Assembly (NCBI GenBank): GCA_040219175.1
Contig: JAVJSY010000090.1
Span: forward strand, 19,386 to 83,385
Direction of reading: 5' to 3'
Length of the DNA stretch: 64,000 nt
DNA from: Kiloniellales bacterium
Lineage (GTDB): Bacteria > Pseudomonadota > Alphaproteobacteria > Kiloniellales > JACOMY01
Part shown: in pieces, positions 28,753 through 61,948 of the stretch
Layout of the letters: every line of letters starts with the position of its first letter
Numbering within the stretch: the first letter of the stretch is position 1
The notes under the pieces: generated by a model
Seen by the model: only the letters and a program-made list of their open reading frames with translations
What the model was told of the DNA's origin: nothing
Databases searched by the model: none
Translations under genes and position numbers: made by a program

Positions 28753-29562
28753 TTATATATGGCCGTAAAAGTCCCTATGCGACGCAGCGGACCAAGCAAA
28801 GTCAAGCAGGGTTGACCAGGAGAAGACGGGTAGGCCGGTCGCCTGCTGTACCGCACGGCCGAAGGGCGGATAGCCGGTGCACTCCAGCACCATCGCCCCC
28901 AAGCGGGGCTCTGCCTTCTGCATGGCCAGGGCGGCTTCGACCATCTGCGCCTCGCAGAGATCGAAGTCGCAGCCGGGCGGATCGGGACGCTGACCGGCCG
29001 TCCCCCAGAGCTTGCGGGTCTCCGGCATGTCTGTCGAGGTCACGCAGTCGTAGAAGTTAAAGAGCCGATAGTTGGAGCCTAGGCGCACACCGACCGCTTC
29101 CAGGTGCGCATCGCTCAGCTCCTCCGGCCCGCCGGTGAAGACGCCGACCACCCTATCCGGACCGATCAGGGTCTGCGCCCAGCCGATCTGCAGCAGGCTG
29201 GACATGAAGACCGGGATTTCCAGCGCGGCTGCGACATGCCTTTGATAATAGGCAAAGAAGCCGCATTCGGCCGCGATCGCCCGACAGCCGTAAGTGTCCT
29301 GCAAGACCTTGGCAGCCTCGACGATCGGCCCGACGTGAGCGTCCAGATCCTTGTCCGGCCCGTCCACCAGGTTCCAGATGTCCAGGTCCTTGATCACCTG
29401 GTACTGGATGGGAAAGCCCCAGCCGCTGGCGTTGCGCACGTCTCCCGGAAAGCCCGGAAAGACATCGTCCAGCAGCAGGACACCCAGCCCGGCGCCATAG
29501 AGCAACTGGCCGGGCTTGGCACGGCTGTGGCGAAGGAAGCGGTCTTTGTTCATCGACTGCAT
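28753..29562 (-). CDS. Asp/Glu/hydantoin-racemase-superfamily protein
   Basis: 269 aa from the ATG at 29562 (MQSMNKD). The pattern GVLLLDDVFPGFPGDVRNASGWGFPIQYQVI...AIAAECGFF...MVLECTGYPPF is typical of this superfamily. The upstream part of the 586-aa track ORF is antisense read-through. Confidence 0.7.
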   Translation of the reverse strand: MQSMNKDRFLRHSRAKPGQLLYGAGLGVLLLDDVFPGFPGDVRNASGWGFPIQYQVIKDLDIWNLVDGPDKDLDAHVGPIVEAAKVLQDTYGCRAIAAECGFFAYYQRHVAAALEIPVFMSSLLQIGWAQTLIGPDRVVGVFTGGPEELSDAHLEAVGVRLGSNYRLFNFYDCVTSTDMPETRKLWGTAGQRPDPPGCDFDLCEAQMVEAALAMQKAEPRLGAMVLECTGYPPFGRAVQQATGLPVFSWSTLLDFAWSAASHRDFYGHI

Positions 29563-29579
29563 GTCTCTGTTTCCCAATC

Positions 29580-31115
29580 CTAAACGCCCAGTTCCGCACC
29601 GCCCTCGGCAGTACGGCGGACGGTAAACTGCTCGATTGCGGCCTTGGCCTCTTCCGCCATTGGCGGCGCGCGGTACTCTCCAAGCGCGCGCCGATAGATG
29701 CCGTGCGCGCGCGTGGTCGCGTCCTCCGCACCAGCTTCCTGCCAGGCTTCGTAGTTCGTCGTGTTGGTGATCAGCGGGCTGTAGAAGGCTGTCTCGAAGC
29801 TCTCGATCGTCCTTTCGGTACCGAAGAAATGCCCACCCGGGCCGACCGAACGAATCTCCTCGATCGAGAGGACGTCTTCGTTCACCGGAACGGGCTGCAG
29901 CCAGACCGCCATCATCTGCAGGATCTCGACGTCGAGGATGAACTTCTCGAAAGAGGCGCAGAGGCCGCCCTCCAACCAGCCGGCGGCATGCATGACCACG
30001 TTGGTGCCGCCGGTTACGGCCGCCCAGAGCGAACCCTGGGCTTCGTAGAGCGCCTGCGCATCGGGCAGATTGGCGTTGTTGAAATTGGCAGCCCGGAAAG
30101 GCAGGCCGATGTGGCGGGCAAGCTGTGCGCCGATCTGGACCGCCTTGTTCGATTCCGGCGTGGCAAAGGCCGGCGCACCGGTCTTCATGTCGACATTCAC
30201 CGTCTTGGCAGCGGTGACGACCGGTGCACCCGGACGCACCAGTTGCGCCAGCACGACACCCGCCAGCGCCTCGGCACTGGACATGGAGACAGCAGCTGCC
30301 AGGGGAACCGGCATGGTAGCACCGGCCAGCGAGAAGGGCGAGATCAAAGCCACCTGGTTGTGCCGTGCCAACTCGATGACCCCGGCTGCCATGGGGCCGT
30401 CGTACTGCAGCGGAGAGTTGGTGTTGATGATGGAGTAGGTACGCGGCCGCTCGACCAGCGCCTCGCGTCCCTCGAGCCCCAGGCCCAGCGCCACCAGGTC
30501 CAGCCCGTCCCACAGTCGCTGTCGGCCTTGTGCGAAGAGATAAGGCACCTTGTCGGAGAGCGTCAGCATGGTGCGCGTGCTCTCCAGATGGCGGATTTCC
30601 ACCGGCACGTCGTTGGGCTCGACCGGTGAGCCGGCGATCATGTGAATGATGTTGAAGTATTGGCCCAGGCGCACGAAGTCGGCGAAATCGGCGAGCGTGC
30701 CGGGACGCCGGCCGCGGTCCAGGTCGGAGCAGTTGGGCGGCCCCAGCACGGTCGAGAAAGCCAGTGCATCGCCGCCGATCTCCACCGCCTTCGCCGGGTC
30801 GCGCGGTGTCAGGGTGAAGCAGCTGGGCGCGGTGGAGAGTGCCTGGGTCACCAGCTCCTCGCCGATGCGCACCCGGCCCTGCCCATCGACGGGCGCGCCG
30901 GCCGCGCGAAAGATCGACAGCGCCTCCTCGTCGTTGAAGACGATCCCGATCTCCTGCAGGATGCGCAACGAGTTGCGATGGATAGCGGCGATCTGGTCGG
31001 TAGAGAGGATCTCAACGAAGGGCGCGCGCAGGCGCAGTTGCGACCAGGCCAGCTGCTCGATCGGCAGCGCGCGGCGGTCCGGGGTGCGCCGACGGCGCGT
31101 TCTGGGCGACGCCAT
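29580..31115 (-). CDS. MttB-superfamily methyltransferase, non-pyrrolysine type
   Basis: 511 aa from the ATG at 31115. Homology runs the full length of the trimethylamine-methyltransferase family (for example SIINTNSPLQYDGPM, VMHAAGWLEGGL, GPGGHFFG). There is no in-frame TAG. Confidence 0.8.
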   Translation of the reverse strand: MASPRTRRRRTPDRRALPIEQLAWSQLRLRAPFVEILSTDQIAAIHRNSLRILQEIGIVFNDEEALSIFRAAGAPVDGQGRVRIGEELVTQALSTAPSCFTLTPRDPAKAVEIGGDALAFSTVLGPPNCSDLDRGRRPGTLADFADFVRLGQYFNIIHMIAGSPVEPNDVPVEIRHLESTRTMLTLSDKVPYLFAQGRQRLWDGLDLVALGLGLEGREALVERPRTYSIINTNSPLQYDGPMAAGVIELARHNQVALISPFSLAGATMPVPLAAAVSMSSAEALAGVVLAQLVRPGAPVVTAAKTVNVDMKTGAPAFATPESNKAVQIGAQLARHIGLPFRAANFNNANLPDAQALYEAQGSLWAAVTGGTNVVMHAAGWLEGGLCASFEKFILDVEILQMMAVWLQPVPVNEDVLSIEEIRSVGPGGHFFGTERTIESFETAFYSPLITNTTNYEAWQEAGAEDATTRAHGIYRRALGEYRAPPMAEEAKAAIEQFTVRRTAEGGAELGV

Positions 31116-31119
31116 CCGG

Positions 31120-31962
31120 CTAAGCCTCTGCCAGAGCGGGCGCGAGGCCCAGAATGGCGCGCGCCTCGACCGGGCTGGCCGGGTGGCGGTCATAGTCGGC
31201 GCAAAGTGCGGCGACGCGGGCCACCAGTTCTGCATTGCTCTCCGCCAGGCGCTGCTTGTCGTAGCGGATGTTGTCCTCCAGCCCGGTGCGGCAGTGCCCG
31301 CCCATCTCCAGCGCCCAGTGGTTGACCTCCAGCTGATGGCGGCCCAGGCCGGCGGCGGTCCAGGTGGCGCCGGGCAGCAGCGCCTGCATCTCCGCAACTT
31401 CGAAGGCCAGGATCTGCCGCCTGGCCGGCTGCGCGCCCTTGATCCCCATCACGAACTGCAGGTGCGGCGGTGTCGTCAACAGCCCCTCGGCCACCAGATC
31501 GGCGGCGTTGTAGAGCATGGCCAGGTCGAAGATCTCACACTCCGGCTTGATCCCCTCCTCCAGCATCTGCGAGGCCAGCGCGCGGATAAACTGCGGTGGG
31601 TTCTCGTTGACGAAGGTCGGAAAGTTGACCGAGCCGGTGGCCAGCGAGGCCATGTCGGGGCGCAAGTGCAACATCCCGCCCCGCTGCTCCAGTGCACGGC
31701 CCCGCGCACCGGTGGAGAACTGCACGATCATGCCCGGACAGTGCTTGCGGATGCCGGCCTGAACGGCGGCGAACAAGTCCGGATCGGAGGAGGGCCTCTC
31801 CTCGCCATCGCGGACATGAATGTGAACCAGCGAGGCGCCGGCTTCGAAGGCGGCATGAGTCGATTCGATCTGCTCGCTGACGGTGACCGGCACCGCCGGC
31901 GTGTCGGCCTTGCGCGGCACCGAGCCGGTGATCGCGACCGTGATGATGCAGGCTGTGGTCAT
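31120..31962 (-). CDS. BKACE-family beta-keto acid cleavage enzyme (3-keto-5-aminohexanoate cleavage enzyme-like, DUF849)
   Basis: 280 aa from the ATG at 31962, which overlaps the SDR stop (ATGA). IITVAITGS, LVHIHVRD (HxH metal site), CRTGLEDN. Confidence 0.8.
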   Translation of the reverse strand: MTTACIITVAITGSVPRKADTPAVPVTVSEQIESTHAAFEAGASLVHIHVRDGEERPSSDPDLFAAVQAGIRKHCPGMIVQFSTGARGRALEQRGGMLHLRPDMASLATGSVNFPTFVNENPPQFIRALASQMLEEGIKPECEIFDLAMLYNAADLVAEGLLTTPPHLQFVMGIKGAQPARRQILAFEVAEMQALLPGATWTAAGLGRHQLEVNHWALEMGGHCRTGLEDNIRYDKQRLAESNAELVARVAALCADYDRHPASPVEARAILGLAPALAEA

Positions 31963-32762
31963 AATTCCTCCAGATCTGGCAGCGTGTCGGGGACCGGGAC
32001 GGTGTAGTTGAGATGGGCCCGGCCGCCATCGGGGTAGAGGGTTTGGCCGGTGACGTAGGAGGCCTCGTCGCTGGCCAGGAAGGAGACCACGGCGGCCACC
32101 TCCTCGGCCCGGCCGAGCCGCCCCATGGGCGTGCGCGAGAGGATGCGCCGATAGGCAGCCTCGTTCTTTCCAAGCCCCGCTGTCAGCGGAGTGAGGATCG
32201 TACCCGGCCCCACCGCATTCACCCGCACGCCCTTGTCGGCGAGCGCAATGGCGAAGATACGGGTCAGCTGATTGATTCCGGCCTTGGAGATGCCGTAGGG
32301 GACGCGGTCCGGGATCGCCAACTCGGCTTGGGCGGAGGACATGTTGACGATGGCGCCGCTGCCTTGGGCGACCATCACCTTCGCAGCCTCCTGCGTACCC
32401 CAGAAGGTCCCCTTGAGGTTGACGTTCAAGACCCGGTCCAACTCGTCTTCGCTGAGCTCGAGCGCTGCCGTGCTGCAGGAGACCGCGGCGTTGTTCACCA
32501 TGATGTCCAAGCGGCCGAAGCGCTGCACCACGGCTTCGACCAGTCCGACCACAGCAGTGCGGGAGCCGACATCGCAATCCAGCGCTACGGCGCGCGCGCC
32601 GTCGGGATCAAGTGCGGCTGCCCGCCGAACCGCGGCATCCCCTTGCACGTCGGAGAAAACGACCGTGGCGCCCTCGCGAAACAGCAGCTCGGCGCAGGCC
32701 GCGCCGATCCCCTGCGCCGCACCGGTCACCAATGCGATTTTGCCGTCATGGCGCATGCTCAT
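31959..32762 (-). CDS. Short-chain dehydrogenase/reductase
   Basis: 267 aa. TGAAQGIGAA, NNAAV, and YGISKAG in the catalytic region. Confidence 0.85.
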   Translation of the reverse strand: MSMRHDGKIALVTGAAQGIGAACAELLFREGATVVFSDVQGDAAVRRAAALDPDGARAVALDCDVGSRTAVVGLVEAVVQRFGRLDIMVNNAAVSCSTAALELSEDELDRVLNVNLKGTFWGTQEAAKVMVAQGSGAIVNMSSAQAELAIPDRVPYGISKAGINQLTRIFAIALADKGVRVNAVGPGTILTPLTAGLGKNEAAYRRILSRTPMGRLGRAEEVAAVVSFLASDEASYVTGQTLYPDGGRAHLNYTVPVPDTLPDLEEL

Positions 32763-34315
32763 CCCTCCTCTTTGCCGAAACCGCCGCCGCCGCCGGTCTC
32801 GATTGAAATCAGGTCTCCACGGTTCAGCAGATGCTGGCCGGAGGCCGGCAAGACCTGGTCGTTGATCCGAAAGCTGGCTGCTTGCCCCGCCGCACCGCCC
32901 ATCAAGCCGGGCGCCGGACAGCGCACCCGGTTCACCATGAAGGAGGCGATTGCCGGGACCTCGCCCAGAAAGCGGAAACCGAAGGAGATACCGTCGCCGC
33001 CGCGCTGCCTGCCGGCCCCGCCGGATCCCCGCCGGATCGACCGCTGCAACACCTCGATCGGTGCTTGGCCTTCCATCACCTCGATCGGCGTGTTGGAGAG
33101 GTTCGAGGGAAAGCTGACGGCACTGGCGCCGTCCTGGCCGCCGCTCGCCCCTTGTCCGGCGCCCAGGAAGGCATTGACGGCATAGTGGGCCCCGGCGCCC
33201 AGGCTGGCGATCTGCAGATTGTTCGAGGGCGAGCCGGGTGCAGCCTGCACCCGCTCCGGCAGCGCCTCTGCCAGTGCCCCGAAGATGGCCGGAGGCAGCA
33301 GGTGTCCGATCATCCCGCGTGCGCCGCAGGGTGCCGGGCGGCGTGGGTTCAGGATCGAGCCCTCGGGCGCCCTCACCTCGATCGGTCGAAAGGCGCCCTC
33401 GTTGTTCGGGATCCAGGGCGCAAAGAGCGCCTTCAGCGCGTAGGCAGAATAGGCGAAGGTGTAGTTCAAGACCGTGTTGATCGCCAACGGCAGCTGCGGG
33501 GAAGAGCCCTCGTAATCCACCGTCACCCGCTCACCGGCGATGGTGACGCGCACACAGATGGTGACCACGCCCCCCGGCAGTTCCTCCGGTCCATCGTTCT
33601 CGATCCGATAGCGCCAGGAGCCGTCCGGCGCCTCGGCAATGGCACGTCGCATCGCCGTTTCGGTGCGCGCAATCACCTCCGCGGCGAAGACCTCAAGATC
33701 GATCTCCATCTCGTCCAGCAGGCCGTTCAGGCGCTGCCCCAGGGACTGCACGCAGGCGACCATGGCCCAGACGTCGCCCAGGGTCTCGTCCGGGACGCGC
33801 ACGTTCCGGCGCAGCAGCCGCACCAGGGTCGCATCCTCCTCGCCGGCCCGCAGCAGGCGCATCGGCGGAATCTGGAAGCCTTCCTCGAAGAGCTCTCTAT
33901 TCGCCGGGTTGCGCAAACGGCCACCAATATCCGGCAAATGACTGACCACGCCGGCGAAGGCCACGACCCGGCCGTCGCGAAAGATGGGGCAAGCAATCGA
34001 GGCGTCGTTCAGGTGGCCGGAGCCGTGCCAGGGGTCGTTGGTGATGAAGACATCGCCCTCGCGCATACTCTCGAGACCATGCTCTTCGATGAAGACGCGG
34101 ATCGTAGCCGGCATGGTGGCGATGAAAGAGGGGATCGACTGCGAGGACTGCGCCAGGCTGCGCCCCTCGGCATCGGTCAGGACCACCGCGTAATCGTTGG
34201 CCTCTCGCACCAGGGTGGAAAAGGAGGCGCGCACGAAGGCGGCAGCTGCCTCGTCGACAACACTCACCAGGCGAGTCCAGAGGATCTCGATGGCGATGGG
34301 ATCGAGCCGCGTCAT
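32759..34315 (-). CDS. hyuB: Hydantoinase B / oxoprolinase-family protein (HyuB)
   Basis: 518 aa. Typical N-terminus DPIAIEILWTRLVSVVDEAAAAFVRASFSTLVREANDYAVVL. Confidence 0.85.
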   Translation of the reverse strand: MTRLDPIAIEILWTRLVSVVDEAAAAFVRASFSTLVREANDYAVVLTDAEGRSLAQSSQSIPSFIATMPATIRVFIEEHGLESMREGDVFITNDPWHGSGHLNDASIACPIFRDGRVVAFAGVVSHLPDIGGRLRNPANRELFEEGFQIPPMRLLRAGEEDATLVRLLRRNVRVPDETLGDVWAMVACVQSLGQRLNGLLDEMEIDLEVFAAEVIARTETAMRRAIAEAPDGSWRYRIENDGPEELPGGVVTICVRVTIAGERVTVDYEGSSPQLPLAINTVLNYTFAYSAYALKALFAPWIPNNEGAFRPIEVRAPEGSILNPRRPAPCGARGMIGHLLPPAIFGALAEALPERVQAAPGSPSNNLQIASLGAGAHYAVNAFLGAGQGASGGQDGASAVSFPSNLSNTPIEVMEGQAPIEVLQRSIRRGSGGAGRQRGGDGISFGFRFLGEVPAIASFMVNRVRCPAPGLMGGAAGQAASFRINDQVLPASGQHLLNRGDLISIETGGGGGFGKEEG

Positions 34316-36375: not shown

Positions 36376-36380
36376 GGGAA

Positions 36381-37466: not shown

Positions 37467-37469
37467 GGT

Positions 37470-41893: not shown

Positions 41894-41898
41894 GGCGC

Positions 41899-43086: not shown

Positions 43087-43141
43087 CGCCGCACCTACAC
43101 TTTCATCGTATAGTGAACTATCGTGTCTTTATTCGGTCTCG

Positions 43142-44080
43142 TCAATCGTTCTGAGCGACAGACGACAGGGCAATCGCTCGGCGCCAGCCTTGCGGATCGG
43201 CAGAGCGTCCCTCGACCAGGTCGAGGTAGCGCTGCTGCAGCTTGCGCACGAAGGGGCCGGGCTTGCCCGTACCGATCGGCAAGCCGTCGATTGCGACCAC
43301 CGGGCAGACCTCCTGGTGCGTGCCGGTGATGAAGGCCTCTTCAGCCAGATAGGTCTCGCTGCGGTCGACGGCGCGTTCTTCGACGGTGATGCCATCCTCG
43401 GCGAGCAGAGACAGCACCGTATCCCGCGTGATGCTCTCGAGAATGTCGGAGGTGACGGAGGGGGTGACGACCCGGCCACGCTTGACGAGGAAGAGGCAAG
43501 AGCCGGCGGTCTCGGCCACCTTGCCGGCTTCGGTCAGAAAGAGCGGATAGTCGAAGCCCTGCTGCTGGGCATCCAGGATGCCGAGCCGGCCGTTGTGATA
43601 GTTGGCGATGCACTTGACCCGCGGCGGCATGGCGCGATCGGCCACCCGCACCCAAGAGCTGACGCCCAGGCGGAAGCCACGCTCGAACTCGACGCCGCGA
43701 CCCAGTGGCGCCTGGGTGACGATGAAGCTGACCGGTCCGCGCGCGCCCTGATCGCCGCGGCCGTCGATGAAGGCCAGAATGCGGAAGTAGAGACCCTGGC
43801 GCTCGCCCTGGCGTTGGATCAGTTCCAATACCCACTTGGTCAGGGTTTCGCGATCGATCTCGGCCTCGAAACGCAGGATGCGCATGCCGTCGAAGAGGCG
43901 GTCGATGTGATCGGCCAGGCGAAAGGCCAGCAGCGTCTGCTGTTCCGCGTTCCAATAGGCGCGGCAGCCCTCGAAGAGGGCCGAGGCATACTTCACCGCC
44001 GGCGAGAGCGCATGAATCTTCGCCTCGTCTTCCGCAATGATCTGGCCGTTGTAGCTGGCCAAGCGCTTAGAGGATGTCAT
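43142..44080 (-). CDS. Class IV aminotransferase, copy 2
   Basis: 312 aa. FEGCRAYWN, AMPPRVKCIANY, CLFLVKRGRVVTP, ILESITR. Alignable end to end with copy 1. Confidence 0.85.
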   Translation of the reverse strand: MTSSKRLASYNGQIIAEDEAKIHALSPAVKYASALFEGCRAYWNAEQQTLLAFRLADHIDRLFDGMRILRFEAEIDRETLTKWVLELIQRQGERQGLYFRILAFIDGRGDQGARGPVSFIVTQAPLGRGVEFERGFRLGVSSWVRVADRAMPPRVKCIANYHNGRLGILDAQQQGFDYPLFLTEAGKVAETAGSCLFLVKRGRVVTPSVTSDILESITRDTVLSLLAEDGITVEERAVDRSETYLAEEAFITGTHQEVCPVVAIDGLPIGTGKPGPFVRKLQQRYLDLVEGRSADPQGWRRAIALSSVAQND

Positions 44081-44089
44081 GCCAAGACC

Positions 44090-46507
44090 TCACTGCCGTA
44101 GCTTGATGCCGTCGGGATCGTAGGGCGCTTGCGCCAGCAAGCGGGCCGGACGCAGGTCGCCGACCACGGGAATGCGATAGTCGGCACCGCAGTCGGCATC
44201 GGCCCGCGAGACATAGGCCAGGGCCAGGCTCTGCCCGACCGCGAAGCCATAGCCGCCAGAGGTGGTTTCGCCGACGATGCGGCCGTTCTTCCAAACCGGC
44301 TCGCCGCCGATACAGTCGGCCGCCTCGCTCTCGACGGCGAAGAGCCGAAGGGTAACCGCACTTTCTTGTTGGGCCGCTTGGGCAAGTGCATCGCGCCCCT
44401 GGAAGGGTCCCTTGTCCAGCTTGACGAAGCGCTCCAGGCCGGCATCGAAGGGGCTGTAGTCTGCGGTGTACTCGCTAAAGACCGAACCATAACCCTTCTC
44501 GAGCCGCAGGCTGTCTTGCGCGAGGGTTCCGCAGAAGGCGATGTCGAGTTTGGCTGCAGCACGGCGCATGGCGGCATAGACCGAAGCATAGCCACGATCC
44601 GGCGTATAGACCTCGAAGCCCAGCTCGCCGGTGAAGGAGAGCCGCAGGATGATTGCCGTTTGACCTGCCACCGCAGCCTCGCCGCCGGAGAGAAACGGCA
44701 GGGCTTCGCCCGAAAGGTCGCTGTCCGTCAGTCGCTGCAGAAAATCCCGCGCGCGCGGGCCGGAGACGGAGAATCCGGCCCAGCTATCGGTCAGGTCCTG
44801 GAAGAAGATGCCGGGACCGGACAGCCGGTCGCACAGGAGGCGCTGGTGGAACTTCACGGCAGAGCCGGAGCCGACCAGGAAGAAGCGTTCCGGCCCCAAC
44901 CGCGTGACGGTGAAGTCGGCGACCAAGCCACCCTTCTCGTTCACCATGGGGCAGAGCGTGATCCGGCCCAGGCCCTGCGGCAGCCGGTTGGTGACCAGAC
45001 CGTCCAGCCAGGCCTCGGCGCCGGACCCGGTCACCAGATACTTGGCATAGGGCGAGGTATCGATGATCCCGCCGGAGCGGCGCAGCGCACGCACCTCGCG
45101 GCCGACAGGCTCGAACCACTTGGCGCGGCGGTAGGCATAGCCGGAATCGCGCTCGGCCTCGCAGGCGGCGAAGTACTGCGGATTCTCCCAACCAAACGAG
45201 ACGCCGAAGACGGCCCCCTGCTCGACCTGCTGGGCATAGTTCTTGCGAACCCGCTGCGGCCGGCCGCTGGTCAGTTGCTCCTTGGGGAAGTGCATGCGGA
45301 AGCGGGTGCCGTAGTTCTCGGCCGAGCGCGCCAGCAGGAACTCCGGCGTGAAGTAGTCGCCGAAGCGCGCGATATCCAGCGAGGCGACATCCCATTCCGG
45401 CGTGCCCTCGACGATCCACTCGGCCACACACTTGCCCAAGCCGCCGCCGGAGCCGATGCCGGTCATGATGCCCACGGCTGCATAGTAGTTCCGCAAGCCC
45501 GGCACCGGCCCCAGCATGCCGGAGGTGTCGGGCGACCACATCATCGGCCCGTTGATGACCCGCTTGATGCCGACCTTGCCCAATGCAGGCGTGCGGGCAA
45601 TTGCACGCTCCATGTTTTCCGAGATGCGCTCCAGGTCGTCGGGCAGCAGCTCATGGCCGAAATCCCATGGCGTGCCCTCGACCGACCAGTGCTTGCCGCG
45701 CCGTTCGTAGGCGCCGACCAGCAGACCTTGGCCTTCCTGGCGCATGTAGTATTCGGCATCGCGGTCCGAGACCGAGGGCAGCTCGCTGTTGAGCGCCGCG
45801 ATCTCCGGGATCGTCTCGGTCACCAGGTACATGTGCTCCATCGGGATGATGGGTAGCTCCAGGCCGGCCATGCGCCCCACCTCGCGCGCCCAAAGCCCGG
45901 CCGCATTGACCAGGTATTCGGCAATGACCGTGCCCTTGTCGGTCACGATCTCCCAACTGCCGTCACCGCGCGGATTGGTCTCCACTACCTTGGTGAAGCG
46001 GTGCACCTCGGCCCCCAGTTGCCGGGCGCCCTTGGCCAATGCATGGGTCATGCCGGAGGGGTCGAGATGGCCTTCGTCGGGCTGATACCAGGCGCCCTTC
46101 AGGCGGCTTGCATCGAGCAGCGGATGGCGATCGCGAATCTCGTTGGGAGACAGCGGCTCGAAGGCGAAACCCAGGTGGCGCGCCTTGGCCTCCATGATGC
46201 GCAGCTGGTCCATGCGGGCCTCGGTCTCGGCCAGGTAGAGCGCACCGGTGGTGTGGATGCCGCAGGACTGCCCGGTCTCCGCCTCCAGCCCGCGATAGCA
46301 GGAGATGGTGTAATAGTTCAGCCGGGCCATGTTGGTGTCGTCGTGCAGCACGCCGAAGCCCGCCGCTGCATGCCAGGTGGAGCCCGAGGTCAGCTCCGAA
46401 CGCTCGAAAAGCGCGATGTCGGTCCAGCCGAGATGGGCCAGGTGATAGAGCGTCGAGCAGCCGATGACGCCGCCGCCGATGACCGCCACTCTCACGTGAG
46501 ACTTCAT
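44090..46507 (-). CDS. Dimethylglycine/sarcosine-dehydrogenase-like FAD oxidoreductase fused to a GcvT aminomethyltransferase domain
   Basis: 805 aa. N-terminal VAVIGGGVIGCSTLYHLA (DAO domain) and a C-terminal folate-binding GcvT-type region. Confidence 0.85.
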   Translation of the reverse strand: MKSHVRVAVIGGGVIGCSTLYHLAHLGWTDIALFERSELTSGSTWHAAAGFGVLHDDTNMARLNYYTISCYRGLEAETGQSCGIHTTGALYLAETEARMDQLRIMEAKARHLGFAFEPLSPNEIRDRHPLLDASRLKGAWYQPDEGHLDPSGMTHALAKGARQLGAEVHRFTKVVETNPRGDGSWEIVTDKGTVIAEYLVNAAGLWAREVGRMAGLELPIIPMEHMYLVTETIPEIAALNSELPSVSDRDAEYYMRQEGQGLLVGAYERRGKHWSVEGTPWDFGHELLPDDLERISENMERAIARTPALGKVGIKRVINGPMMWSPDTSGMLGPVPGLRNYYAAVGIMTGIGSGGGLGKCVAEWIVEGTPEWDVASLDIARFGDYFTPEFLLARSAENYGTRFRMHFPKEQLTSGRPQRVRKNYAQQVEQGAVFGVSFGWENPQYFAACEAERDSGYAYRRAKWFEPVGREVRALRRSGGIIDTSPYAKYLVTGSGAEAWLDGLVTNRLPQGLGRITLCPMVNEKGGLVADFTVTRLGPERFFLVGSGSAVKFHQRLLCDRLSGPGIFFQDLTDSWAGFSVSGPRARDFLQRLTDSDLSGEALPFLSGGEAAVAGQTAIILRLSFTGELGFEVYTPDRGYASVYAAMRRAAAKLDIAFCGTLAQDSLRLEKGYGSVFSEYTADYSPFDAGLERFVKLDKGPFQGRDALAQAAQQESAVTLRLFAVESEAADCIGGEPVWKNGRIVGETTSGGYGFAVGQSLALAYVSRADADCGADYRIPVVGDLRPARLLAQAPYDPDGIKLRQ

Positions 46508-46595
46508 CTGGACCTCCCCCGCCTTTCGATGACTCCCAGGTACACGAGCACCTTCCGGCGATCAATCAAATAAATCACTATTCAATGCATTAGAT

Positions 46596-47138
46596 CTAAT
46601 ATTGCATCATCGCCCAAGACTCCACGAACCAGTCGACAAGCGCGGCGGCGAAGCTGGTCGGTATGAGCAGGCGAAAACGCTCTGGCGACAGCCGGTGAAC
46701 AAGGATGCTCGCGTCGTGCAGCCGGGTCTGCGCAAAGGCGCCGGGGGTTAGGCCTGCCGGTCCCAGATCGATCGCTATCCCGCGGGTCAGAAGAGAGACC
46801 GCCTCGCTGCCGTCGAGATCGAGGATGCGCTTGGCGTGACCGATGTCGCTGACCGCTCCGTCCTGCCCGACGGCAGACCGGCATTCCTGCAGCAGCGGTC
46901 GCGCCCGATCGCTCAAGAGCAGCAGGCGGTCCGGCGCGATGCGATAGGCCCAACCGTCAGGGAATCCGGCAACCTGCCGGCCGTCCGCAGGCATTTCGAA
47001 CGCCAAGGCTTCTGCCAGCCGCAATGCGGCCGCGCCGCGCGCACCACGCCAGAAGCCGACCTGCACCAGCGGTCGGCAGGGTTGGAGCTGCAGCTGAAGG
47101 GCGGCGCCCTGGTCTAGGATGCTATGCCTATCATCCAC
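46596..47138 (-). CDS. soxG: Sarcosine oxidase gamma subunit
   Basis: Position after soxA. I chose the GTG at 47138 (VDDRHSILDQ), which overlaps the soxA stop (GTGGATGA). About 180 aa fits SoxG size. The upstream part of the track ORF overlaps soxA. Confidence 0.65.
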   Translation of the reverse strand: MDDRHSILDQGAALQLQLQPCRPLVQVGFWRGARGAAALRLAEALAFEMPADGRQVAGFPDGWAYRIAPDRLLLLSDRARPLLQECRSAVGQDGAVSDIGHAKRILDLDGSEAVSLLTRGIAIDLGPAGLTPGAFAQTRLHDASILVHRLSPERFRLLIPTSFAAALVDWFVESWAMMQY

Positions 47139-49938
47139 GCTGCCGCACTCCTTCGGGATCGAGGAAGTGCGGATCGCGAACCAGCGCCTTGCAGAGGCGA
47201 CCGCGCGCCGGGTCGTGCACGGCGACCTCGCGGCCATGCTGGGCGCGCCCGTCGCGCAGGAGCGCCAAGGCCAGATAGCAGCCAAGCGAGGGCGACCAGG
47301 TGGCCGCTGTGATGCGCCCCTCGCCCAGGCCTGCGAAGGGCCCAAAGGACAGCACCGCACCGCTGCTGAGCGGCGTCTCGGCGGTCAAGCCGACCAGTTG
47401 CTTGCGATCCTTTGCCTGCAGACCCGGCCGCTCGGCCATGACCTGACCGACGAAGGCTTTCTTGCGGCTGGCCATAGCGGCCAGACCGAGATCGTCGAGG
47501 GTGGTGCGGCCGTCCAGCTCTCCAGCGGAGACATGGCCCTTCTCGATCCTGAGCGCGCCCAAGGCCTCGAGGCCATAGGCACCGGCGCCGGCTCGCCGCA
47601 GGGCCCGCCAAACGCTCGGTGCATCCTGCGCAGGGCAGTAGACCTCATAGCCAAGCTCACCGGAAAAGCTGACCCGGATCAACCGCACAGGCGCGCCCGC
47701 CAGCTCTGTCTCAAGCAGACCGAGAAAGGGCAGGTCACGCGCCTGCTCTGCACCGATCAGCTTGGCCAGCACCTTGCGCGCGTTGGGTCCGGAGAGCGCG
47801 ATGGCCGCCCAGTGATCGGTCACATCGCAGACCTGGACTCGAAGATCGCGCCAGGCAGTCTGCAGAAGGAACTCTATTCTGGAGAGCACTTGTTCGGCCT
47901 TGGCGGTCGTCGTGGTCATGACATAGCGGGTCTCACCCAGCCTTGCCGTCGTGCCGTCGTCGAAGACATAGCCATCGTCGCGCAACATCACCCCCCAGCG
48001 CGCCTTGCCGACGGCGAGCTTGCTCCAGCCGTTGCAATAGAGCCGGTTCAACAGTTCCGCGGCATCGGGGCCCTCGATCTCGAACTTGCCCAGGGTCGAG
48101 ACGTCGGAGATGGCGGCGTCGCTACGCACTATCTCCATCTCCCGACAACTCGCGCTCTCCAGGTCCGGGCCGTTCTCGCGAAAGTACCAGGCGCGCTCCC
48201 ACAGGCCTGAGTGGGTCATAACGGCCCCCTCCTCTCGAAGGAGCGAGTCCAAGGGCGTGCGGCGGCGCAGATGAAATGCGCCGCCGACCTCAGCCCCGGC
48301 GAGCGCGCCGAGCGAGACGGCTGCATAGGGTGGGCGGAAGGTCGTCGTGCCGGTCTCGGCAATCGTGCGCCCGCTGGCCTCGGCCATCAGGGCAAGACCA
48401 AGGACATTGGAGGTACGCCCCTGATCGCTGCCCATGCCAAGTGTCGTGTAGCGCTTCAGATGCTCGACCGAGACAAAGCCTTCGTCATGCGCCTGGCGAA
48501 CATCCTTTGCCGTCACGTCGTTCTGCAGATCGACGAAAGCCATAGGTCCTTCGCCGCTGCGCCAGAGCGGCTGTAGCGGTCTGGACCAGCCTGTTTCGGG
48601 TACGACCTCGCCGTCCGCCACTCGGCGAAAGTCGCCGGCCGCGGCCCCGACCACAGCCATTCCACCGGGCAAGGATCCCGGCAGGAAGGCGGCATGGGGA
48701 TCGCTCCAGCGCGGCCTCGCACCGGCTTGACTGGCCAGGTGCAAGACCGGCGACCAGCCGCCGGCAAGGCAGAGCAGATCGCAAGGCAGACGTGCCCTGT
48801 CGCGCGCGCCGCTCACCTCCACCACACGCAAGCGCCGACCGAATGCGGCGGTTATTCGACTGCCGAGCCGCAGGATGATACCAGCCGATTCCAGGCTCTT
48901 GCGCCGCTCGGCGTCCAGATTCTCGCGCGGATCGACCAGCGTCACCGCAGCACCTGCCTGAGCCAGCTCCAATGCGACGGCCTCGCCGCTATCGTTGTTC
49001 TGGAAGACAACGGCGCGCTCACCGCAGAGAACGCCATAGCGATTGAGGTAGGTTCTGGCCGCACCGGCCAACATCACGCCCGGCCGATCGTTGCCGGGAA
49101 AGACGAAGCCGCGTTCAAGGGCACCGCTGGCGAGGACAGCCCGCTCGGCCCGAATGAGCCACAGCTGCAGGACCTCGCCCTCCTCCACAGCGGCAAAGCA
49201 GCCGTGGTCGTAGGTGCCGAAGACCTGCGTGTTGGTTAGGACTTGCACGTTGGACTGCGCGGCAAGCGCCGTCAGCAGCGTCTCAAGATGCGCACGCTCT
49301 TGACTGCCGGGCGGTGTCGAGAGCGCAGCCCCACCGAGAAGGCTATCGCGTTCGACCAGGAGGACACTGTCTCCTTCCCGCGCGGCTTCCAGCGCGGCCG
49401 CAATGCCGGCGAGGCCGGCACCGACGACCAGGACCCGGCAGTGCGCATGCAGGGTCTCGGCCGGACGCGGGTCGGGGCCTGTCGGCGGAGGACCGAGGCC
49501 GGCGGCCTTGCGGATAAAATGCTCGTAAAGCATCCAGGCGCGCGCATTCGGGCCCATGAAGGTCTTGTAATAGAAGCCCGCGCCGGTGAGCGGCGCTGCC
49601 AGCCCGGTCAGCGACTGCAGGTCCAGATGCAGGCTGGGCCAGCGGTTCTGGCTTACCGCCTCCAGGCCTTCACTCAAGGGCACTGCAGTTGCCTGGATGT
49701 TGGGACGACGCGCATCGCCGCGGCCGATGCTGACCAGCGCGTTGGGCTCCTCCAGGCCGGCGGCATAGATCCCGCGCGGGCGGTGGTACTTGAAGGAGCG
49801 CCCGACCAGGCGCACGCCGTTCGCCAGCAGCGCCGAGGCCAGGCTGTCGCCGGCATAGCCCGTGAGCGCACGACCATCGAAACGGAAGCGCAGGGGACGC
49901 GCGCGATCGATCTCGCCGCGGTCGGGAAGGCGCCTCAC
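47131..49938 (-). CDS. soxA: Sarcosine oxidase alpha subunit
   Basis: 935 aa. N-terminus LRFRFDGRALTGYAGDSLASALLANGVRLVGRSFKYHRPRG, an NAD-binding region and a GcvT-like C-terminus. Confidence 0.9.
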   Translation of the reverse strand: MRRLPDRGEIDRARPLRFRFDGRALTGYAGDSLASALLANGVRLVGRSFKYHRPRGIYAAGLEEPNALVSIGRGDARRPNIQATAVPLSEGLEAVSQNRWPSLHLDLQSLTGLAAPLTGAGFYYKTFMGPNARAWMLYEHFIRKAAGLGPPPTGPDPRPAETLHAHCRVLVVGAGLAGIAAALEAAREGDSVLLVERDSLLGGAALSTPPGSQERAHLETLLTALAAQSNVQVLTNTQVFGTYDHGCFAAVEEGEVLQLWLIRAERAVLASGALERGFVFPGNDRPGVMLAGAARTYLNRYGVLCGERAVVFQNNDSGEAVALELAQAGAAVTLVDPRENLDAERRKSLESAGIILRLGSRITAAFGRRLRVVEVSGARDRARLPCDLLCLAGGWSPVLHLASQAGARPRWSDPHAAFLPGSLPGGMAVVGAAAGDFRRVADGEVVPETGWSRPLQPLWRSGEGPMAFVDLQNDVTAKDVRQAHDEGFVSVEHLKRYTTLGMGSDQGRTSNVLGLALMAEASGRTIAETGTTTFRPPYAAVSLGALAGAEVGGAFHLRRRTPLDSLLREEGAVMTHSGLWERAWYFRENGPDLESASCREMEIVRSDAAISDVSTLGKFEIEGPDAAELLNRLYCNGWSKLAVGKARWGVMLRDDGYVFDDGTTARLGETRYVMTTTTAKAEQVLSRIEFLLQTAWRDLRVQVCDVTDHWAAIALSGPNARKVLAKLIGAEQARDLPFLGLLETELAGAPVRLIRVSFSGELGYEVYCPAQDAPSVWRALRRAGAGAYGLEALGALRIEKGHVSAGELDGRTTLDDLGLAAMASRKKAFVGQVMAERPGLQAKDRKQLVGLTAETPLSSGAVLSFGPFAGLGEGRITAATWSPSLGCYLALALLRDGRAQHGREVAVHDPARGRLCKALVRDPHFLDPEGVRQRG

Positions 49939-50198
49939 GATCCCACTTCCTCGGCGAAAGTGACCAGGGTCACCTCATGCGTGCGCGTGTCGCGCTCGAC
50001 CAGCAGCCAGCGGCGGCAGCCAAAGCGATGCTGCCAGTATTCGCGGTGCGGCCCACGCGGATTGTCCCGCTGGTAGAGGTAGGCGAGCCAGGCCTCTGGA
50101 TCGCTCTCCGCCTGCGCGGGCCGCTGGGCCCAGGCATCGCCGCCATAGGCGAACTCCTCGCTGTCGCGCGAGCCGCACCAGGGACAGATCAAGCGCAT
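49935..50198 (-). CDS. soxD: Sarcosine oxidase delta subunit
   Basis: 87 aa. MRLICPWCGSRDSEEFAYGGDA (zinc-finger-type N-terminus). 4-nt overlap with soxA. Confidence 0.9.
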   Translation of the reverse strand: MRLICPWCGSRDSEEFAYGGDAWAQRPAQAESDPEAWLAYLYQRDNPRGPHREYWQHRFGCRRWLLVERDTRTHEVTLVTFAEEVGS

Positions 50199-50207
50199 GG
50201 CATAGCC

Positions 50208-51494
50208 TCAATGGAGATGCGGATAGGGGCCGCTGCCTTCCTCGTCCAGCTCGCGCCCGGTGGCGAAGCGGTCGAGGCGGAAGCAGGCGCTCAAGGGGTG
50301 CGGCTCGTCCTTGGCGACGGTCCAGGCGGTGCAGAAGCCCGAAGCCGGAATCGCCTTGAAGCCGCCATAGCACCAGCCGCCGGTCAGGTAGAGGCCGGGG
50401 ACGGGCGCAGCAGAGATGAAGGGGGATCCGTCCATAGTCTGATCGACCACCCCGCCCCACTGCCGAAGCAAGCGGGCCTTGCCCAAGGCCGGGATAAGCG
50501 AGACGGCGGCGGCCGCGGCCTTGCGCGCGACTGCGATCCCACCCCGCCCGCTGTAGGAGGCATGACCGTCCATATCGCTGCCGAAGACCAGGCCGCCCTT
50601 GTCGGATTGCGAGATGTAGAAGTGGCCGCCGGACCAGGAGATGACATGGTCGATCATCGGCTTCAGTCCCTCGGTCACGAAGGCCTGCAGCAGGTGGCTC
50701 TCCAAGGGCAGGCGCAGCCCCGCTTTCGCCGCCAGCAGCGAGGTGTGGCCAGCCACAGCGAGCACGACCTTGTCGGCCCGGACCGGGCCCTTCCCGGTCT
50801 CGACTCCGGCAATGCGCTGGCCCTTCCACAGGTAGCCGGTGACCTCGCAGCCTTCGACGATGTCGACGCCCAGGCGGTCGGCGGCTCTGGCATAGCCCCA
50901 GGCCACGGCATCGTGCCTTGCCGTCCCGGCATCGTGCTGGATCATCCCGCCCACCACCGGAAAGCGCGCGCGCTGAGAATAGTCGAGGTAGGGCAGCAGT
51001 CTCTGCATCTGCCCCAGATCCAAGAGTTCTGCGCGCAACCCGTTCAGAGTCATGACATTGACCCGCTGGGCATAGGCATCCATGGCGTCCGGGCTGTGCG
51101 CCACACCGACCATGCCGCGCGGCGAGAACATGACGTTGTAGTTCAGGGTCCGGCTCAGATCCCGCCAAAGGTCGAGCGAGAAGCGATAGAACTGGAAGTT
51201 GCCCTCTTCCATATAGTTGGCGCGCACGATGGTGGTGTTGCGTCCGGTGTTGCCGCCGCCCAGCCAGCTTTTCTCCAGCACCGCGACACGGCGAAGACCA
51301 TGCTCCTTCGCCAGGTAGAAGGCTGTTGCCAGGCCATGACCGCCACCGCCCACGACAACGACGTCATAGGCCTCCGCCGGCTCGGCGGCGCGCCACTGGC
51401 GCGGCCAGGCACGCCCGCTCAAGGCATGGGACAGCAGTGAGAAGGCAGAGAAGGTCACCGGCGCGCCAATCCTTCCAGCGGTGAGCCGCAGCAT
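50208..51494 (-). CDS. soxB: Sarcosine oxidase beta subunit
   Basis: ATG at 51494 (MLRLTAG); the track ORF begins at a TTG four codons upstream (51506). YDVVVVGGGGHGLATAFYLAKEHG. Confidence 0.9.
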   Translation of the reverse strand: MLRLTAGRIGAPVTFSAFSLLSHALSGRAWPRQWRAAEPAEAYDVVVVGGGGHGLATAFYLAKEHGLRRVAVLEKSWLGGGNTGRNTTIVRANYMEEGNFQFYRFSLDLWRDLSRTLNYNVMFSPRGMVGVAHSPDAMDAYAQRVNVMTLNGLRAELLDLGQMQRLLPYLDYSQRARFPVVGGMIQHDAGTARHDAVAWGYARAADRLGVDIVEGCEVTGYLWKGQRIAGVETGKGPVRADKVVLAVAGHTSLLAAKAGLRLPLESHLLQAFVTEGLKPMIDHVISWSGGHFYISQSDKGGLVFGSDMDGHASYSGRGGIAVARKAAAAAVSLIPALGKARLLRQWGGVVDQTMDGSPFISAAPVPGLYLTGGWCYGGFKAIPASGFCTAWTVAKDEPHPLSACFRLDRFATGRELDEEGSGPYPHLH

Positions 51495-51577
51495 ACGGCA
51501 ATGCAATCCGATTTATCTTATATCGATGCATTGCGTCAATTTCCGATACATGCATCAATGACTGAAGGATCGAATTT

Positions 51578-61770: not shown

Positions 61771-61948
61771 GGAGCAGAGGACCCGTGATCTCAGCCGACC
61801 CGGTTTGCTGATCCGTACTGACATCATAGCCGCGAAACAAATTCAACATTAACCACAAATTCCAAAATTCCCTTTGACTCCTTTCGGTCAATTAGATTAA
61901 CCACATAATCAACAAAACCCACAAAACTGCACATTGCTCGCTGATACA

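Follow-up and report, generated by a model that had tools for sequence, protein, structure and literature searches.

Three kinds of N-demethylase are linked to a widespread acid-degrading module with a putative Ltp2-like retro-aldolase in a conserved 19-gene array of a Kiloniellales bacterium

The 64,000-nucleotide (nt) stretch of Kiloniellales bacterium contig JAVJSY010000090.1 analyzed here (the window; from an NCBI metagenome-assembled genome, with a G+C content of ~65%) contains an array of 19 co-directional minus-strand open reading frames (ORFs) spanning positions 28753 to 51494, in which 22,584 of 22,742 nt are coding. The array is real and conserved, and in it N-demethylase genes of three kinds are combined with an acid-degrading module that is widespread. 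Gene families were called from Pfam domains and from NCBIfam models with curated cut-offs. In order of transcription, the genes are as follows.

Gene 1: 50208-51494, minus strand; soxB-like beta subunit (FAD); PF01266, TIGR01373 score of 590.8 versus a cut-off of 529.
Gene 2: 49935-50198, minus strand; soxD-like delta subunit; PF04267, TIGR01374 score of 108.7, just under the cut-off of 116.5.
Gene 3: 47131-49938, minus strand; soxA-like alpha subunit with a folate-binding GCV_T domain; Fer2_4, SO_alpha_A3, and GCV_T, TIGR01372 score of 1089 versus a cut-off of 1164.
Gene 4: 46596-47138, minus strand; soxG-like gamma subunit, divergent; TIGR01375 score of 66 versus a cut-off of 144.
Gene 5: 44090-46507, minus strand; DMGDH-like FAD + GcvT fusion; DAO, FAO_M, GCV_T, and GCV_T_C, 586 bits to human DMGDH.
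Gene 6: 43142-44080, minus strand; class IV, branched-chain aminotransferase (BCAT)-like aminotransferase a; PF01063, TIGR01122 score of 248.7 versus a cut-off of 245.6, 46% identity with aminotransferase b.
Gene 7: 41899-43086, minus strand; acyl-CoA dehydrogenase (ACAD); four ACAD Pfam domains, no NCBIfam equivalog over its cut-off.
Gene 8: 41120-41893, minus strand; crotonase-type enoyl-CoA hydratase; PF00378, 219 bits.
Gene 9: 39933-41123, minus strand; family III CoA-transferase; PF02515, 390 bits.
Gene 10: 38803-39933, minus strand; thiolase-fold protein, Ltp2-like, putative retro-aldolase; alignments to 7yvy, 7pxp_C, and 6ok1.
Gene 11: 38393-38806, minus strand; DUF35 partner (zinc ribbon and OB fold), overlapping gene 10 by 4 nt; PF12172 and PF01796.
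Gene 12: 37470-38396, minus strand; class IV (BCAT-like) aminotransferase b; NF005146 score of 291.6 versus a cut-off of 279, best PDB matches BCATs.
Gene 13: 36381-37466, minus strand; oxidoreductase of the Ldh_2 family (for a 2-oxo/2-hydroxy acid or a cyclic imine); PF02615, 340 bits, no equivalog over its cut-off.
Gene 14: 34312-36375, minus strand; HyuA-type subunit of an ATP-dependent amidohydrolase; PF05378 and PF01968, caprolactamase alpha model score of 391 versus a cut-off of 1000.
Gene 15: 32759-34315, minus strand; HyuB-type subunit; PF02538, 478 bits.
Gene 16: 31959-32762, minus strand; short-chain dehydrogenase (SDR); PF13561 and PF00106.
Gene 17: 31120-31962, minus strand; BKACE (an enzyme that cleaves beta-keto acids), 3-oxoadipate subfamily; NF053568 score of 455 versus a cut-off of 350.
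Gene 18: 29580-31115, minus strand; non-pyrrolysine MttB-superfamily methyltransferase; PF06253, 602 bits, an uninterrupted 511-codon ORF with no in-frame amber codon.
Gene 19: 28753-29562, minus strand; 269-residue Asp/Glu/hydantoin-racemase-superfamily protein; PRK07475 score of 227 versus a cut-off of 231, homologs carry PF01177.

A preliminary description of this DNA, made from its letters alone, had placed all 19 ORFs on the minus strand, from soxB to the racemase-superfamily gene, and had listed their overlaps and gaps; both accounts were borne out when the ORFs were rechecked and every junction was recomputed. Seven 4-nt ATGA/GTGA overlaps (49935-49938, 41120-41123, 38803-38806, 38393-38396, 34312-34315, 32759-32762, and 31959-31962), one 8-nt overlap (47131-47138), and one 1-nt overlap (39933) are accompanied by gaps of 3 to 17 nt, save for one of 88 nt (46508-46595) and one of 55 nt (43087-43141). 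The overlap at 41120-41123 depends on a GTG start at 41123; a public gene call on an identical contig begins at ATG 41117, which leaves a 2-nt gap. The start of soxB is ATG 51494 or GTG 51458 rather than TTG 51506. Close packing and 4-nt overlaps are commonplace in bacterial operons, and it is composition, rather than coupling, that sets this array apart.

A 20th minus-strand ORF (51536-52675) was rejected as spurious: it has no family match and lies opposite a plus-strand Peptidase_S15 (CocE/NonD) gene with a strong Pfam match and high third-position GC. A plasmid origin was likewise rejected, a megablast search of the whole array against PLSDB having returned only short matches of 72 to 83%. 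At its downstream end the array stops 28 nt from a convergent split thiamine diphosphate (ThDP) enzyme (27583-28724, plus strand), which resembles the alpha and beta subunits of sulfopyruvate/phosphonopyruvate decarboxylase at sub-threshold scores and adjoins a second ACAD gene (26179-27357, minus strand). Neither the split enzyme nor the second ACAD is kept beside the array in relatives.

Synteny was surveyed by using the central CoA-transferase as the query against a single genome for each GTDB species, followed by tblastn with 20 queries (the 19 genes plus the ORF later rejected) and context look-ups. At least eight other contigs, mostly from Rhodospirillales-type alphaproteobacteria where these are named, carry the array in colinear form, down to ~60 to 75% amino acid identity (contigs L002, L006, L003, L005/L086/L090, and L091 and the variants L085/L097 and L087). 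Full arrays occur in two Rhodospirillales metagenome-assembled genomes (MAGs; ~90% amino acid identity), an Alphaproteobacteria MAG (~75%), the isolate Rhodovibrionaceae bacterium A322 (GCA_052078155.1; ~74%; L005/L086/L090), and Logan contig L091; over the 13 genes that it spans, another Logan contig (L001) matches the window without a difference. Two variants are informative about what can be missing. One, on an ENA contig (L085/L097), has neither sox nor the SDR and BKACE genes and carries a polar-amino-acid ABC transporter inserted before MttB; the other, on a JGI contig (L087), has no HyuAB. What all of these N-methyl arrays retain is gene 5, aminotransferase a, ACAD, crotonase, CoA-transferase, the thiolase-fold protein, DUF35, aminotransferase b, Ldh_2, MttB, and the racemase-like gene. 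The linkage of modules that the preliminary description proposed thus stands insofar as the block is kept as a unit in several genomes and is not scattered in close relatives, and it needs qualifying insofar as sox, HyuAB, and the SDR-BKACE pair are each absent from some natural variants.

Smaller forms of the system are found without the demethylases. A mid-size module, running from ACAD through HyuB and including BKACE, is carried by the isolate Phyllobacterium sp. YR531 and by MAGs that bear the labels Ferrovibrio, Xanthobacteraceae, Phreatobacter, and Mesorhizobium. The core, which consists of the family III CoA-transferase, ACAD, crotonase, and the Ltp2-like lyase with its DUF35 partner, usually with a BCAT-like aminotransferase and Ldh_2, occurs by itself or with HyuAB and BKACE at dozens of alpha- and betaproteobacterial loci, and the five genes ACAD-hydratase-CoA-transferase-thiolase-fold-DUF35 stand alone in many of these bacteria. 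Genes that recur next to the core include those for ThDP enzymes, SDRs, RidA, an RraA-like protein, and an SSADH-like aldehyde dehydrogenase. The transporters linked to it vary (polar-amino-acid, Liv-type, and tripartite tricarboxylate): polar-amino-acid ABC transporters lie within or beside the arrays of A322 and L097, and a Lys/Arg/Orn-like binding protein is found in mid-size loci. Betaproteobacteria such as Polaromonas, Rhodoferax, and Achromobacter (L039 and L043-L079) carry ACAD, crotonase, and CoA-transferase, and most of these loci also have the Cys-less thiolase-fold protein with DUF35. Among the genes around these betaproteobacterial cores are Liv-type ABC genes, AtuA, a GntR regulator, HyuAB at a distance (~34% identity), and a BKACE that differs from that of the array in passing the 3,5-dioxohexanoate equivalog.

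The region upstream of soxB and the two larger gaps are AT-rich (39 to 49% G+C), and both gaps are retained in relatives. Most units share a ~27-nt operator motif with the consensus ATATATTGCATCGTATATTGATACATA. The pattern TGCATYGNWWWDWGA, with at most one mismatch, has five matches in the window versus 0.46 expected, all of them intergenic within this system, and the motif recurs upstream of gene 5 or gene 7 orthologs in ~20 other genomes, typically in the divergent region between IclR and ACAD. To avoid circularity, a 27-nt weight matrix was built from 14 sites in other genomes only; it placed six window positions at or above 20.2 bits versus 0.017 expected, corresponding to five sites, one of which was matched on both strands. 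When each intergenic segment was itself shuffled 500 times, the observed score of the strong sites (soxB/S15, the gap between genes 4 and 5, the binding protein, and IclR/DAO) was reached in 0 to 1 of 500 shuffles. The sites at the array are listed first below, followed by the genes beyond it that belong to the same system.

46569-46595, minus strand: operator site in the 88-nt gap upstream of gene 5; matrix score of 28.7, 0/500 shuffles, kept in L002, L003, L006, and L085.
51510-51556, minus strand: two operator sites in the soxB/S15-hydrolase divergent region; matrix scores of 23.3 and 22.0, 1/500 shuffles.
43096-43122, plus strand: weak operator-like site in the 55-nt gap before ACAD; matrix score of 11.8, rank 15 of 128,000 positions, 8/500 shuffles.
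51578-53635, plus strand: CocE/NonD (Peptidase_S15) hydrolase, true start uncertain; PF02129 and PF08530, in the same position in L085, L090, and L091.
53863-55470, minus strand: orphan SBP_bac_5 solute-binding protein; PF00496, with an operator site at 55537-55563 (matrix score of 23.3, 0/500 shuffles).
55697-56482, minus strand: IclR-family regulator, candidate operator binder; PF09339 and PF01614, in at least 12 genomes its orthologs and the ACAD gene are divergent.
56590-57807, plus strand: DAO-family FAD oxidoreductase; PF01266, linked to the core in L012, L016, L019, L085, and L091.
57804-59423, minus strand: ThDP-dependent 2-oxo-acid decarboxylase, AruI-like subfamily; NF005712 score of 601.6 versus a cut-off of 500, core linkage in L012, L019, L085, and L091.

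The IclR/DAO site (56599-56625; matrix score of 28.1, 0/500 shuffles) lies in the divergent region between those genes, just inside the DAO ORF as called. The hydrolase gene is divergent from the first array gene wherever the junction is visible (the window, L085, L090, and L091). Its 5' end, next to the operator sites, consists of 4.6 copies of a 15-nt tandem repeat, GTGGAGGAAGGCAGG (51578-51646), which if translated would give VEEGx pentapeptide repeats; because the Pfam domain begins at residue 41, the true start may lie downstream of the repeat. The IclR, DAO oxidase, and ThDP decarboxylase genes sit just past the hydrolase here and directly beside the core in L012, L016, and L019, and the NF005712 subfamily into which the decarboxylase falls is named "5-guanidino-2-oxopentanoate decarboxylase." The limits originally given for the system, the first and last genes of the array, were therefore too narrow: the S15 hydrolase, the SBP_bac_5 protein, IclR, the DAO-family oxidase, and the 2-oxo-acid decarboxylase belong to it as well.

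These results also bear on how the array is transcribed. It had been presented as a single translationally coupled super-operon, and the shared operator and the conserved block do tie its units together. However, the 88-nt gap holds a conserved operator and is where the array starts in the genome without sox, so a single obligatory transcript is unlikely. The simplest reading of these sites is a regulon of tandem co-directional units, namely, soxBDAG, genes 5 and 6, and the 13 genes from 7 to 19, plus the flanking genes, with the IclR protein most likely binding the operator. Beside the weak site in the 55-nt gap lies a sigma-70-like hexamer pair, TTGACG-17-GATAGT (43145-43117, minus strand). 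Counts of internal sigma-70 promoters and intrinsic terminators inside the array were not above those in shuffled sequence. We infer that the widespread IclR-controlled core was extended by N-demethylation genes in a few Rhodospirillales-type alphaproteobacteria, the demethylation units having been recruited to the operator of an older core.

The alternative that unrelated modules for glycine-betaine demethylation, lactam opening, and acid degradation are merely adjacent, their tight spacing reflecting genome compaction, deserves consideration at this point. Each module is found alone elsewhere, sox, HyuAB, and SDR-BKACE are singly dispensable, and gene 5 orthologs at 61 to 66% identity occur in unrelated contexts. 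However, gene order and orientation are kept down to ~60 to 75% identity in several lineages, the same operator precedes sox, gene 5, the binding protein, and IclR/DAO, and in each variant seen MttB and the racemase-like gene remain joined to the core at its far end. Chance adjacency is, in our judgment, very improbable.

The family assignments of the preliminary description were confirmed by Pfam and NCBIfam, with one revision that would change the chemistry of the core. Gene 10, which it had taken for the thiolase of the CoA module, has the thiolase fold without the thiolase catalytic Cys and His. In pairwise alignments, the nucleophile loop of thiolases (EAACASG in 7yvy, QSACSAG in BbsB) pairs with DQGGAAN in gene 10, and the motif of the catalytic His (VHDAF, LHDAF) pairs with LYDCF; the nucleophilic Cys is thus replaced by Gly/Ala and the His by Tyr. 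Among 40 gene 10 orthologs from alpha- and betaproteobacteria, none has Cys at the nucleophile position or the His of HDCF/HDAF; all 40 have YDCF and 37 have DQGGA(A/S)N. Both changes are shared with Ltp2, the aldolase of steroid side-chain degradation (6ok1), whose LYDHF aligns with LYDCF. We take the Tyr of LYDHF to be the catalytic Tyr294 of Ltp2 and its second catalytic Tyr to be Tyr344. Because the Cys and His are lost as in Ltp2, a DUF35 gene adjoins, and ACAD and hydratase precede, gene 10 probably cleaves a 3-hydroxyacyl-CoA by a retro-aldol reaction into an aldehyde or ketone plus an acyl-CoA. Such a cleavage would account for the fact that the core is often found without a 3-hydroxyacyl-CoA dehydrogenase and is often linked to an aldehyde dehydrogenase.

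A close parallel is the Ltp2-ChsH2(DUF35) system of Mycobacterium and Thermomonospora, with which the array shares a thiolase fold lacking the nucleophilic Cys, Tyr at the position of the HDCF His, an adjacent and obligatory-looking DUF35 partner, and preceding ACAD and hydratase steps. It differs in that its hydratase is a crotonase rather than MaoC-type, its DUF35 is a separate small protein, the second catalytic Tyr is not kept, and its context is the amino-acid/carboxylate catabolism of alpha- and betaproteobacteria rather than steroid degradation. The Bbs pathway of benzylsuccinate beta-oxidation (BbsEF, G, H, CD, and AB) offers a second comparison: it too combines a family III CoA-transferase with ACAD, crotonase, SDR, and a protein of the thiolase fold that has a DUF35/zinc-ribbon subunit. 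However, BbsB retains the catalytic Cys and His that gene 10 has lost, the array SDR is not always present, and the array hosts are apparently aerobes, with no glycyl-radical enzyme present. The top sub-threshold matches of the array CoA-transferase are succinyl-CoA:mesaconate, formyl-CoA, and succinate-glutarate transferases.

The N-demethylation genes are of three kinds. The four sox-like genes have the SoxBDAG order beta-delta-alpha-gamma, and the alpha subunit carries the GcvT folate domain, as judged from Pfam and gene order; the gamma subunit is only 34% identical in relatives in which identity is otherwise 75%. Gene 5 has the full domain fusion of the DMGDH/SARDH family and strong similarity to its characterized members, making it a putative demethylase for a tertiary or secondary N-methyl amine. 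Its orthologs at >60% identity stand apart from the bulk of the family at ~50 to 55%, and for this reason its specificity may differ from dimethylglycine.

The third kind is MttB (gene 18), whose nearest structures are 4yyc, an uncharacterized MttB-family protein presumably from Sinorhizobium meliloti, followed by glycine betaine methyltransferases (MtgB). Among the window genes scanned, neither a corrinoid partner nor a methyl-corrinoid:tetrahydrofolate (THF) methyltransferase turned up. In aerobic alphaproteobacteria, whose genomes carry up to seven MttB paralogs of unassigned specificity, MttB-family enzymes use MtgC and MtgD encoded elsewhere in the genome (PMC12478193), and the missing partner therefore does not exclude membership of gene 18 in the non-pyrrolysine quaternary-amine methyltransferases of the MttB superfamily. 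The racemase-like gene 19 has a weak family match alone, its homologs at 50 to 55% identity carrying PF01177, and a single-sequence AlphaFold model of the protein was unusable (mean pLDDT [predicted local distance difference test] of 44). It accompanies MttB in all four arrays in which both genes are visible, directly after MttB in L086 and L087 and, in L097, upstream of MttB across the inserted ABC transporter. A general racemase-like/MttB partnership was rejected, as distant homologs adjoin Opp transporters and GcvP instead.

MttB and the DMGDH-like enzyme partner independently of the core: in other genomes their orthologs are paired in LysR-MttB-M24-gene 5 operons. In L082 (7144-12412) and L083 (7171-12418), gene 5 orthologs (61 to 66% identity) and MttB (~61%) flank a creatinase/M24 protein whose best match, sub-threshold, is the dimethylsulfoniopropionate lyase DddP, the three genes forming a LysR-controlled operon. 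Adjoining the sox-less array of L097 (11722-21551) are a second MttB, a PrpD/MmgE protein, an Oxidored_FMN flavoprotein (the StcD/trimethylamine-dehydrogenase architecture), an aminotransferase of class III, and a second DMGDH-like gene, a group that resembles another N-methyl-amine cluster. In the window itself, ~10 kb past the array end, lies a gene for an AraC-family regulator with an N-terminal DJ-1/PfpI domain (17587-18738, plus strand), an architecture known from the Pseudomonas betaine/carnitine/sarcosine regulators GbdR, CdhR, and SouR.

The same three enzyme families act in the glycine betaine series (MtgB/MttB family with MtgC/MtgD, then DMGDH, then SoxBDAG; PMC12478193), and like that series the array could strip three N-methyl groups to the folate pool; Ruegeria and Phaeobacter are also without a corrinoid partner beside MttB (PMC12478193). 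Unlike that series, the array places the three demethylases in one regulon with a 13-gene carbon-skeleton module, its Sox alpha, delta, and gamma subunits score below their cut-offs, its substrate may differ, and its MttB is accompanied by a racemase-family gene.

This likeness raises the question of whether the whole array could be a gamma-butyrobetaine/carnitine-type pathway ending in glycine betaine. In such a scheme, the CoA-transferase, ACAD, and hydratase would act as CaiB, CaiA, and CaiD to give carnitinyl-CoA, an aldolase would yield betaine aldehyde or SDR plus BKACE would yield betainyl-CoA, and MttB, the DMGDH-like enzyme, and SoxBDAG would run glycine betaine through dimethylglycine and sarcosine to glycine. 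The enzyme classes fit Cai logic, the structures nearest MttB after the uncharacterized protein are glycine betaine methyltransferases, gene 5 scores 586 bits to DMGDH, SoxB passes its family cut-off, and the aldehyde dehydrogenase linked to the core elsewhere scores well, at sub-threshold level, on betaine-aldehyde dehydrogenase models. However, the Cai-like reading of the CoA module was rejected on its equivalog scores, which are much too low (CaiA, 119 versus 540; CaiB, 132 versus 413; CaiD, 190 versus 500). The BKACE is of the anionic 3-oxoadipate subfamily and not of the dehydrocarnitine type, the core is common with amino-acid or tricarboxylate transporters and without betaine genes, and the scheme would leave two BCAT-like transaminases, Ldh_2, HyuAB, and the AruI-like decarboxylase without a role. 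We regard it as improbable.

The optional genes HyuAB, SDR, and BKACE give further hints. Both Hyu subunits are full length, and the PDB matches of HyuB run from N-methylhydantoinase (184 bits) and caprolactamase (133 bits) to acetophenone carboxylase (99 bits) and acetone carboxylase (66 bits). The initial view of HyuAB as an ATP-dependent opener of lactams or amides accordingly held up, and amide or lactam opening is a better reading of these similarities than carboxylation. A ketone carboxylase feeding BKACE (levulinate plus CO2 to 3-oxoadipate) was set aside as a minor possibility, HyuB being much nearer N-methylhydantoinase and caprolactamase. The BKACE assignment was confirmed at family level and needed narrowing: by its equivalog score, gene 17 falls within the 3-oxoadipate subfamily. 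A Skermanella gene located after those for an intradiol dioxygenase and maleylacetate reductase shares 68% identity with it, and genes adjoining pcaG share 57 to 59%, with homologs overall ranging from 57 to 69%; pca-linked DUF849 genes have been placed in the beta-ketoadipate (G4) group (PMC8963497). Like the 3-oxoadipate:acetyl-CoA acetyltransferase of Cupriavidus necator and other G4 enzymes, it passes the equivalog cut-off. Unlike them, it stands in a non-aromatic context after HyuAB and SDR and is optional among variants.

HyuAB together with BKACE could also suggest degradation of a synthetic or rare lactam (caprolactam, N-methylcaprolactam, or N-methylpyrrolidone), in which HyuAB would open the ring and a transaminase and adipate-type beta-oxidation would lead to 3-oxoadipate for cleavage by BKACE. 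HyuA and HyuB have the caprolactamase subunits as their best NCBIfam matches, the BKACE has the appropriate type, and the single paper found to match this enzyme vocabulary concerns the caprolactam pathway; the two-subunit, ATP-dependent lactamase is a shared feature with CapAB. However, the HyuA and HyuB scores of 391 and 165 bits fall well short of the caprolactamase equivalog cut-offs of 1000, HyuAB is missing from one otherwise complete array, and the array transaminases are class IV, whereas the caprolactam pathway uses class III omega-transaminases, of which the array has none. The core is also widespread in soil, lake, and marine MAGs (by name or sampling source), which favors a natural substrate. 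A synthetic or rare lactam seems very improbable.

The transaminases themselves point elsewhere. Both score at or over ilvE cut-offs and have BCATs as their best PDB matches, raising the possibility that N-methylated or N,N-dimethylated branched-chain-type amino acids are degraded, such as might be freed by the S15 peptidase from peptides that carry N-methyl groups. BCAT, decarboxylase, CoA-transferase, ACAD, and hydratase would then yield an alpha- or beta-branched 3-hydroxyacyl-CoA that the retro-aldolase would split, for example, to acetaldehyde plus propionyl-CoA or to acetone plus acetyl-CoA. Ltp2- and SCPx-type enzymes typically act on branched acyl-CoAs, the betaproteobacterial cores carry Liv-type transporters and AtuA, and a hydrolase of the S15 X-Pro-peptidase family and a peptide-type binding protein are within the regulon. 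On the other hand, such bacteria already own standard branched-chain pathways, the decarboxylase belongs to the AruI (cationic 2-oxo acid) subfamily, and the alphaproteobacterial arrays are linked to polar-amino-acid transporters. The 3-oxoadipate-type BKACE would also go unexplained, as would MttB, because no common quaternary branched-chain betaine metabolite is known. A branched-chain substrate thus seems unlikely, about as much so as the carnitine-type route.

We instead favor the interpretation, to which we assign a probability of roughly 0.55, that the array is a catabolic regulon, and not a single operon, for an N-methylated amino compound whose breakdown includes a retro-aldol step. 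The CocE/NonD hydrolase may first free the methylated compound from an ester or amide. The compound, up to quaternary, would be imported by a polar-amino-acid ABC transporter in A322 and L097 and by way of the peptide/opine-type binding protein here. MttB would demethylate it first, with the help of a methyl-cobalamin:THF methyltransferase and a corrinoid protein whose genes lie elsewhere, the DMGDH-like enzyme second, and the Sox-like oxidase (where present) or the DAO oxidase last, the methyl groups passing to the folate pool. The freed amino group or groups would be taken off by the two BCAT-like transaminases, and the 2-oxo acid would be reduced by Ldh_2 or decarboxylated by the AruI-like enzyme. 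The resulting acid would undergo CoA transfer, desaturation, and hydration, and the Ltp2-like lyase would split the product by retro-aldol cleavage, not thiolysis, into an aldehyde or ketone and an acyl-CoA. Two optional branches may be attached: the SDR and the 3-oxoadipate-type BKACE could convert a 3-hydroxy dicarboxylic acid to acetoacetate and either succinyl-CoA or a close analogue of it, and HyuAB could reopen a lactam with ATP, acting on a substrate analogue or a cyclized amino-acyl intermediate. The sequence of transaminase, ThDP decarboxylase, and aldehyde oxidation recalls the arginine transaminase pathway (AruH/AruI), from which the array differs in having class IV transaminases and no guanidinobutyrase.

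As to the substrate, we favor, with low confidence, an N-methylated basic or cyclic amino acid. A member of the lysine/pipecolate family, such as N6-trimethyllysine or pipecolate betaine, is the leading guess, though a tentative and on balance doubtful one, made because of the AruI-like decarboxylase, the Lys/Arg/Orn-like binding proteins, Ldh_2, and a lactamase that would be able to reopen 6-oxopipecolate or valerolactam. The Ldh_2 family includes piperideine-2-carboxylate reductase. Four routes were tried on paper, namely, lysine via 5-aminovalerate to glutarate, 2-aminoadipate via a 6-CoA ester, trimethyllysine to valerobetaine, and homoserine betaine derived from diacylglyceryl-trimethylhomoserine (DGTS), and each left some genes unaccounted for. 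The more specific proposal of an undescribed aerobic pathway for a quaternary or N-methylated amino acid (N6-trimethyllysine, pipecolate betaine, or a related betaine), in which new MttB, DMGDH, and Sox specificities would feed the widespread IclR-controlled module with an Ltp2-like retro-aldolase in place of a thiolase, is plausible at somewhat less than even odds.

Several observations count against the regulon and pathway as just set out. In gene 10, the alignment places SESGTPG where Ltp2 has GEAYIHG, with loss of the second catalytic Tyr, and the protein could instead be another C-C lyase or an acyltransferase, like PhlC. The sub-cut-off scores of Sox alpha, delta, and gamma mean that sarcosine may not be the substrate. 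Neither a corrinoid protein nor an aldehyde dehydrogenase was found among the window genes scanned. The BCAT-like transaminases and the betaproteobacterial Liv-type transporters point to branched-chain-like substrates, in conflict with a basic amino acid, and a lysine skeleton does not lead readily to a BKACE of the 3-oxoadipate type. The score of 11.8 at the site between genes 6 and 7 is no higher than the best chance match in the shuffled window, and one long read-through transcript is possible given that the promoter and terminator scans were at chance level. Finally, the pairing of IclR with the operator and all of the catalytic steps were deduced from sequence.

Other features of the window were recorded alongside the array. 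Amide/peptide genes lie around it, coding for penicillin amidase (23684-25744), gamma-glutamyltranspeptidase (59644-61260), amidase (61934-63361), and a Dpp-type ABC transporter (6069-12497). No operator site scoring above 20 lies beside these genes; the only match nearby is a weak site of 14.7 (59444-59470) in the region common to the decarboxylase and gamma-glutamyltranspeptidase genes. A 508-residue protein (16036-17562, minus strand) has six matched stretches of the RTX calcium-binding repeat family.

The preliminary description knew of no characterized operon of this composition, and the literature searched likewise gave no published description of the gene combination. All of the components come from known families; it is the combination that is new, and not the category of system. 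The array is probably a credible candidate for an undescribed catabolic pathway. If this is confirmed, it would provide a handle on the substrate of one aerobic MttB paralog, because MttB is linked here to second- and third-tier demethylases and to a carbon-skeleton pathway, and the full array in the cultured isolate Rhodovibrionaceae bacterium A322 makes the question more tractable. Confirmation would also suggest that retro-aldol cleavage of the Ltp2 type extends well beyond steroid degradation and that "acetyl-CoA acetyltransferase" is the wrong annotation for many proteins. As an example of how long catabolic arrays are assembled, this one would appear to have been built by stacking existing promoter/operator junctions, with new units joining an existing IclR regulon.

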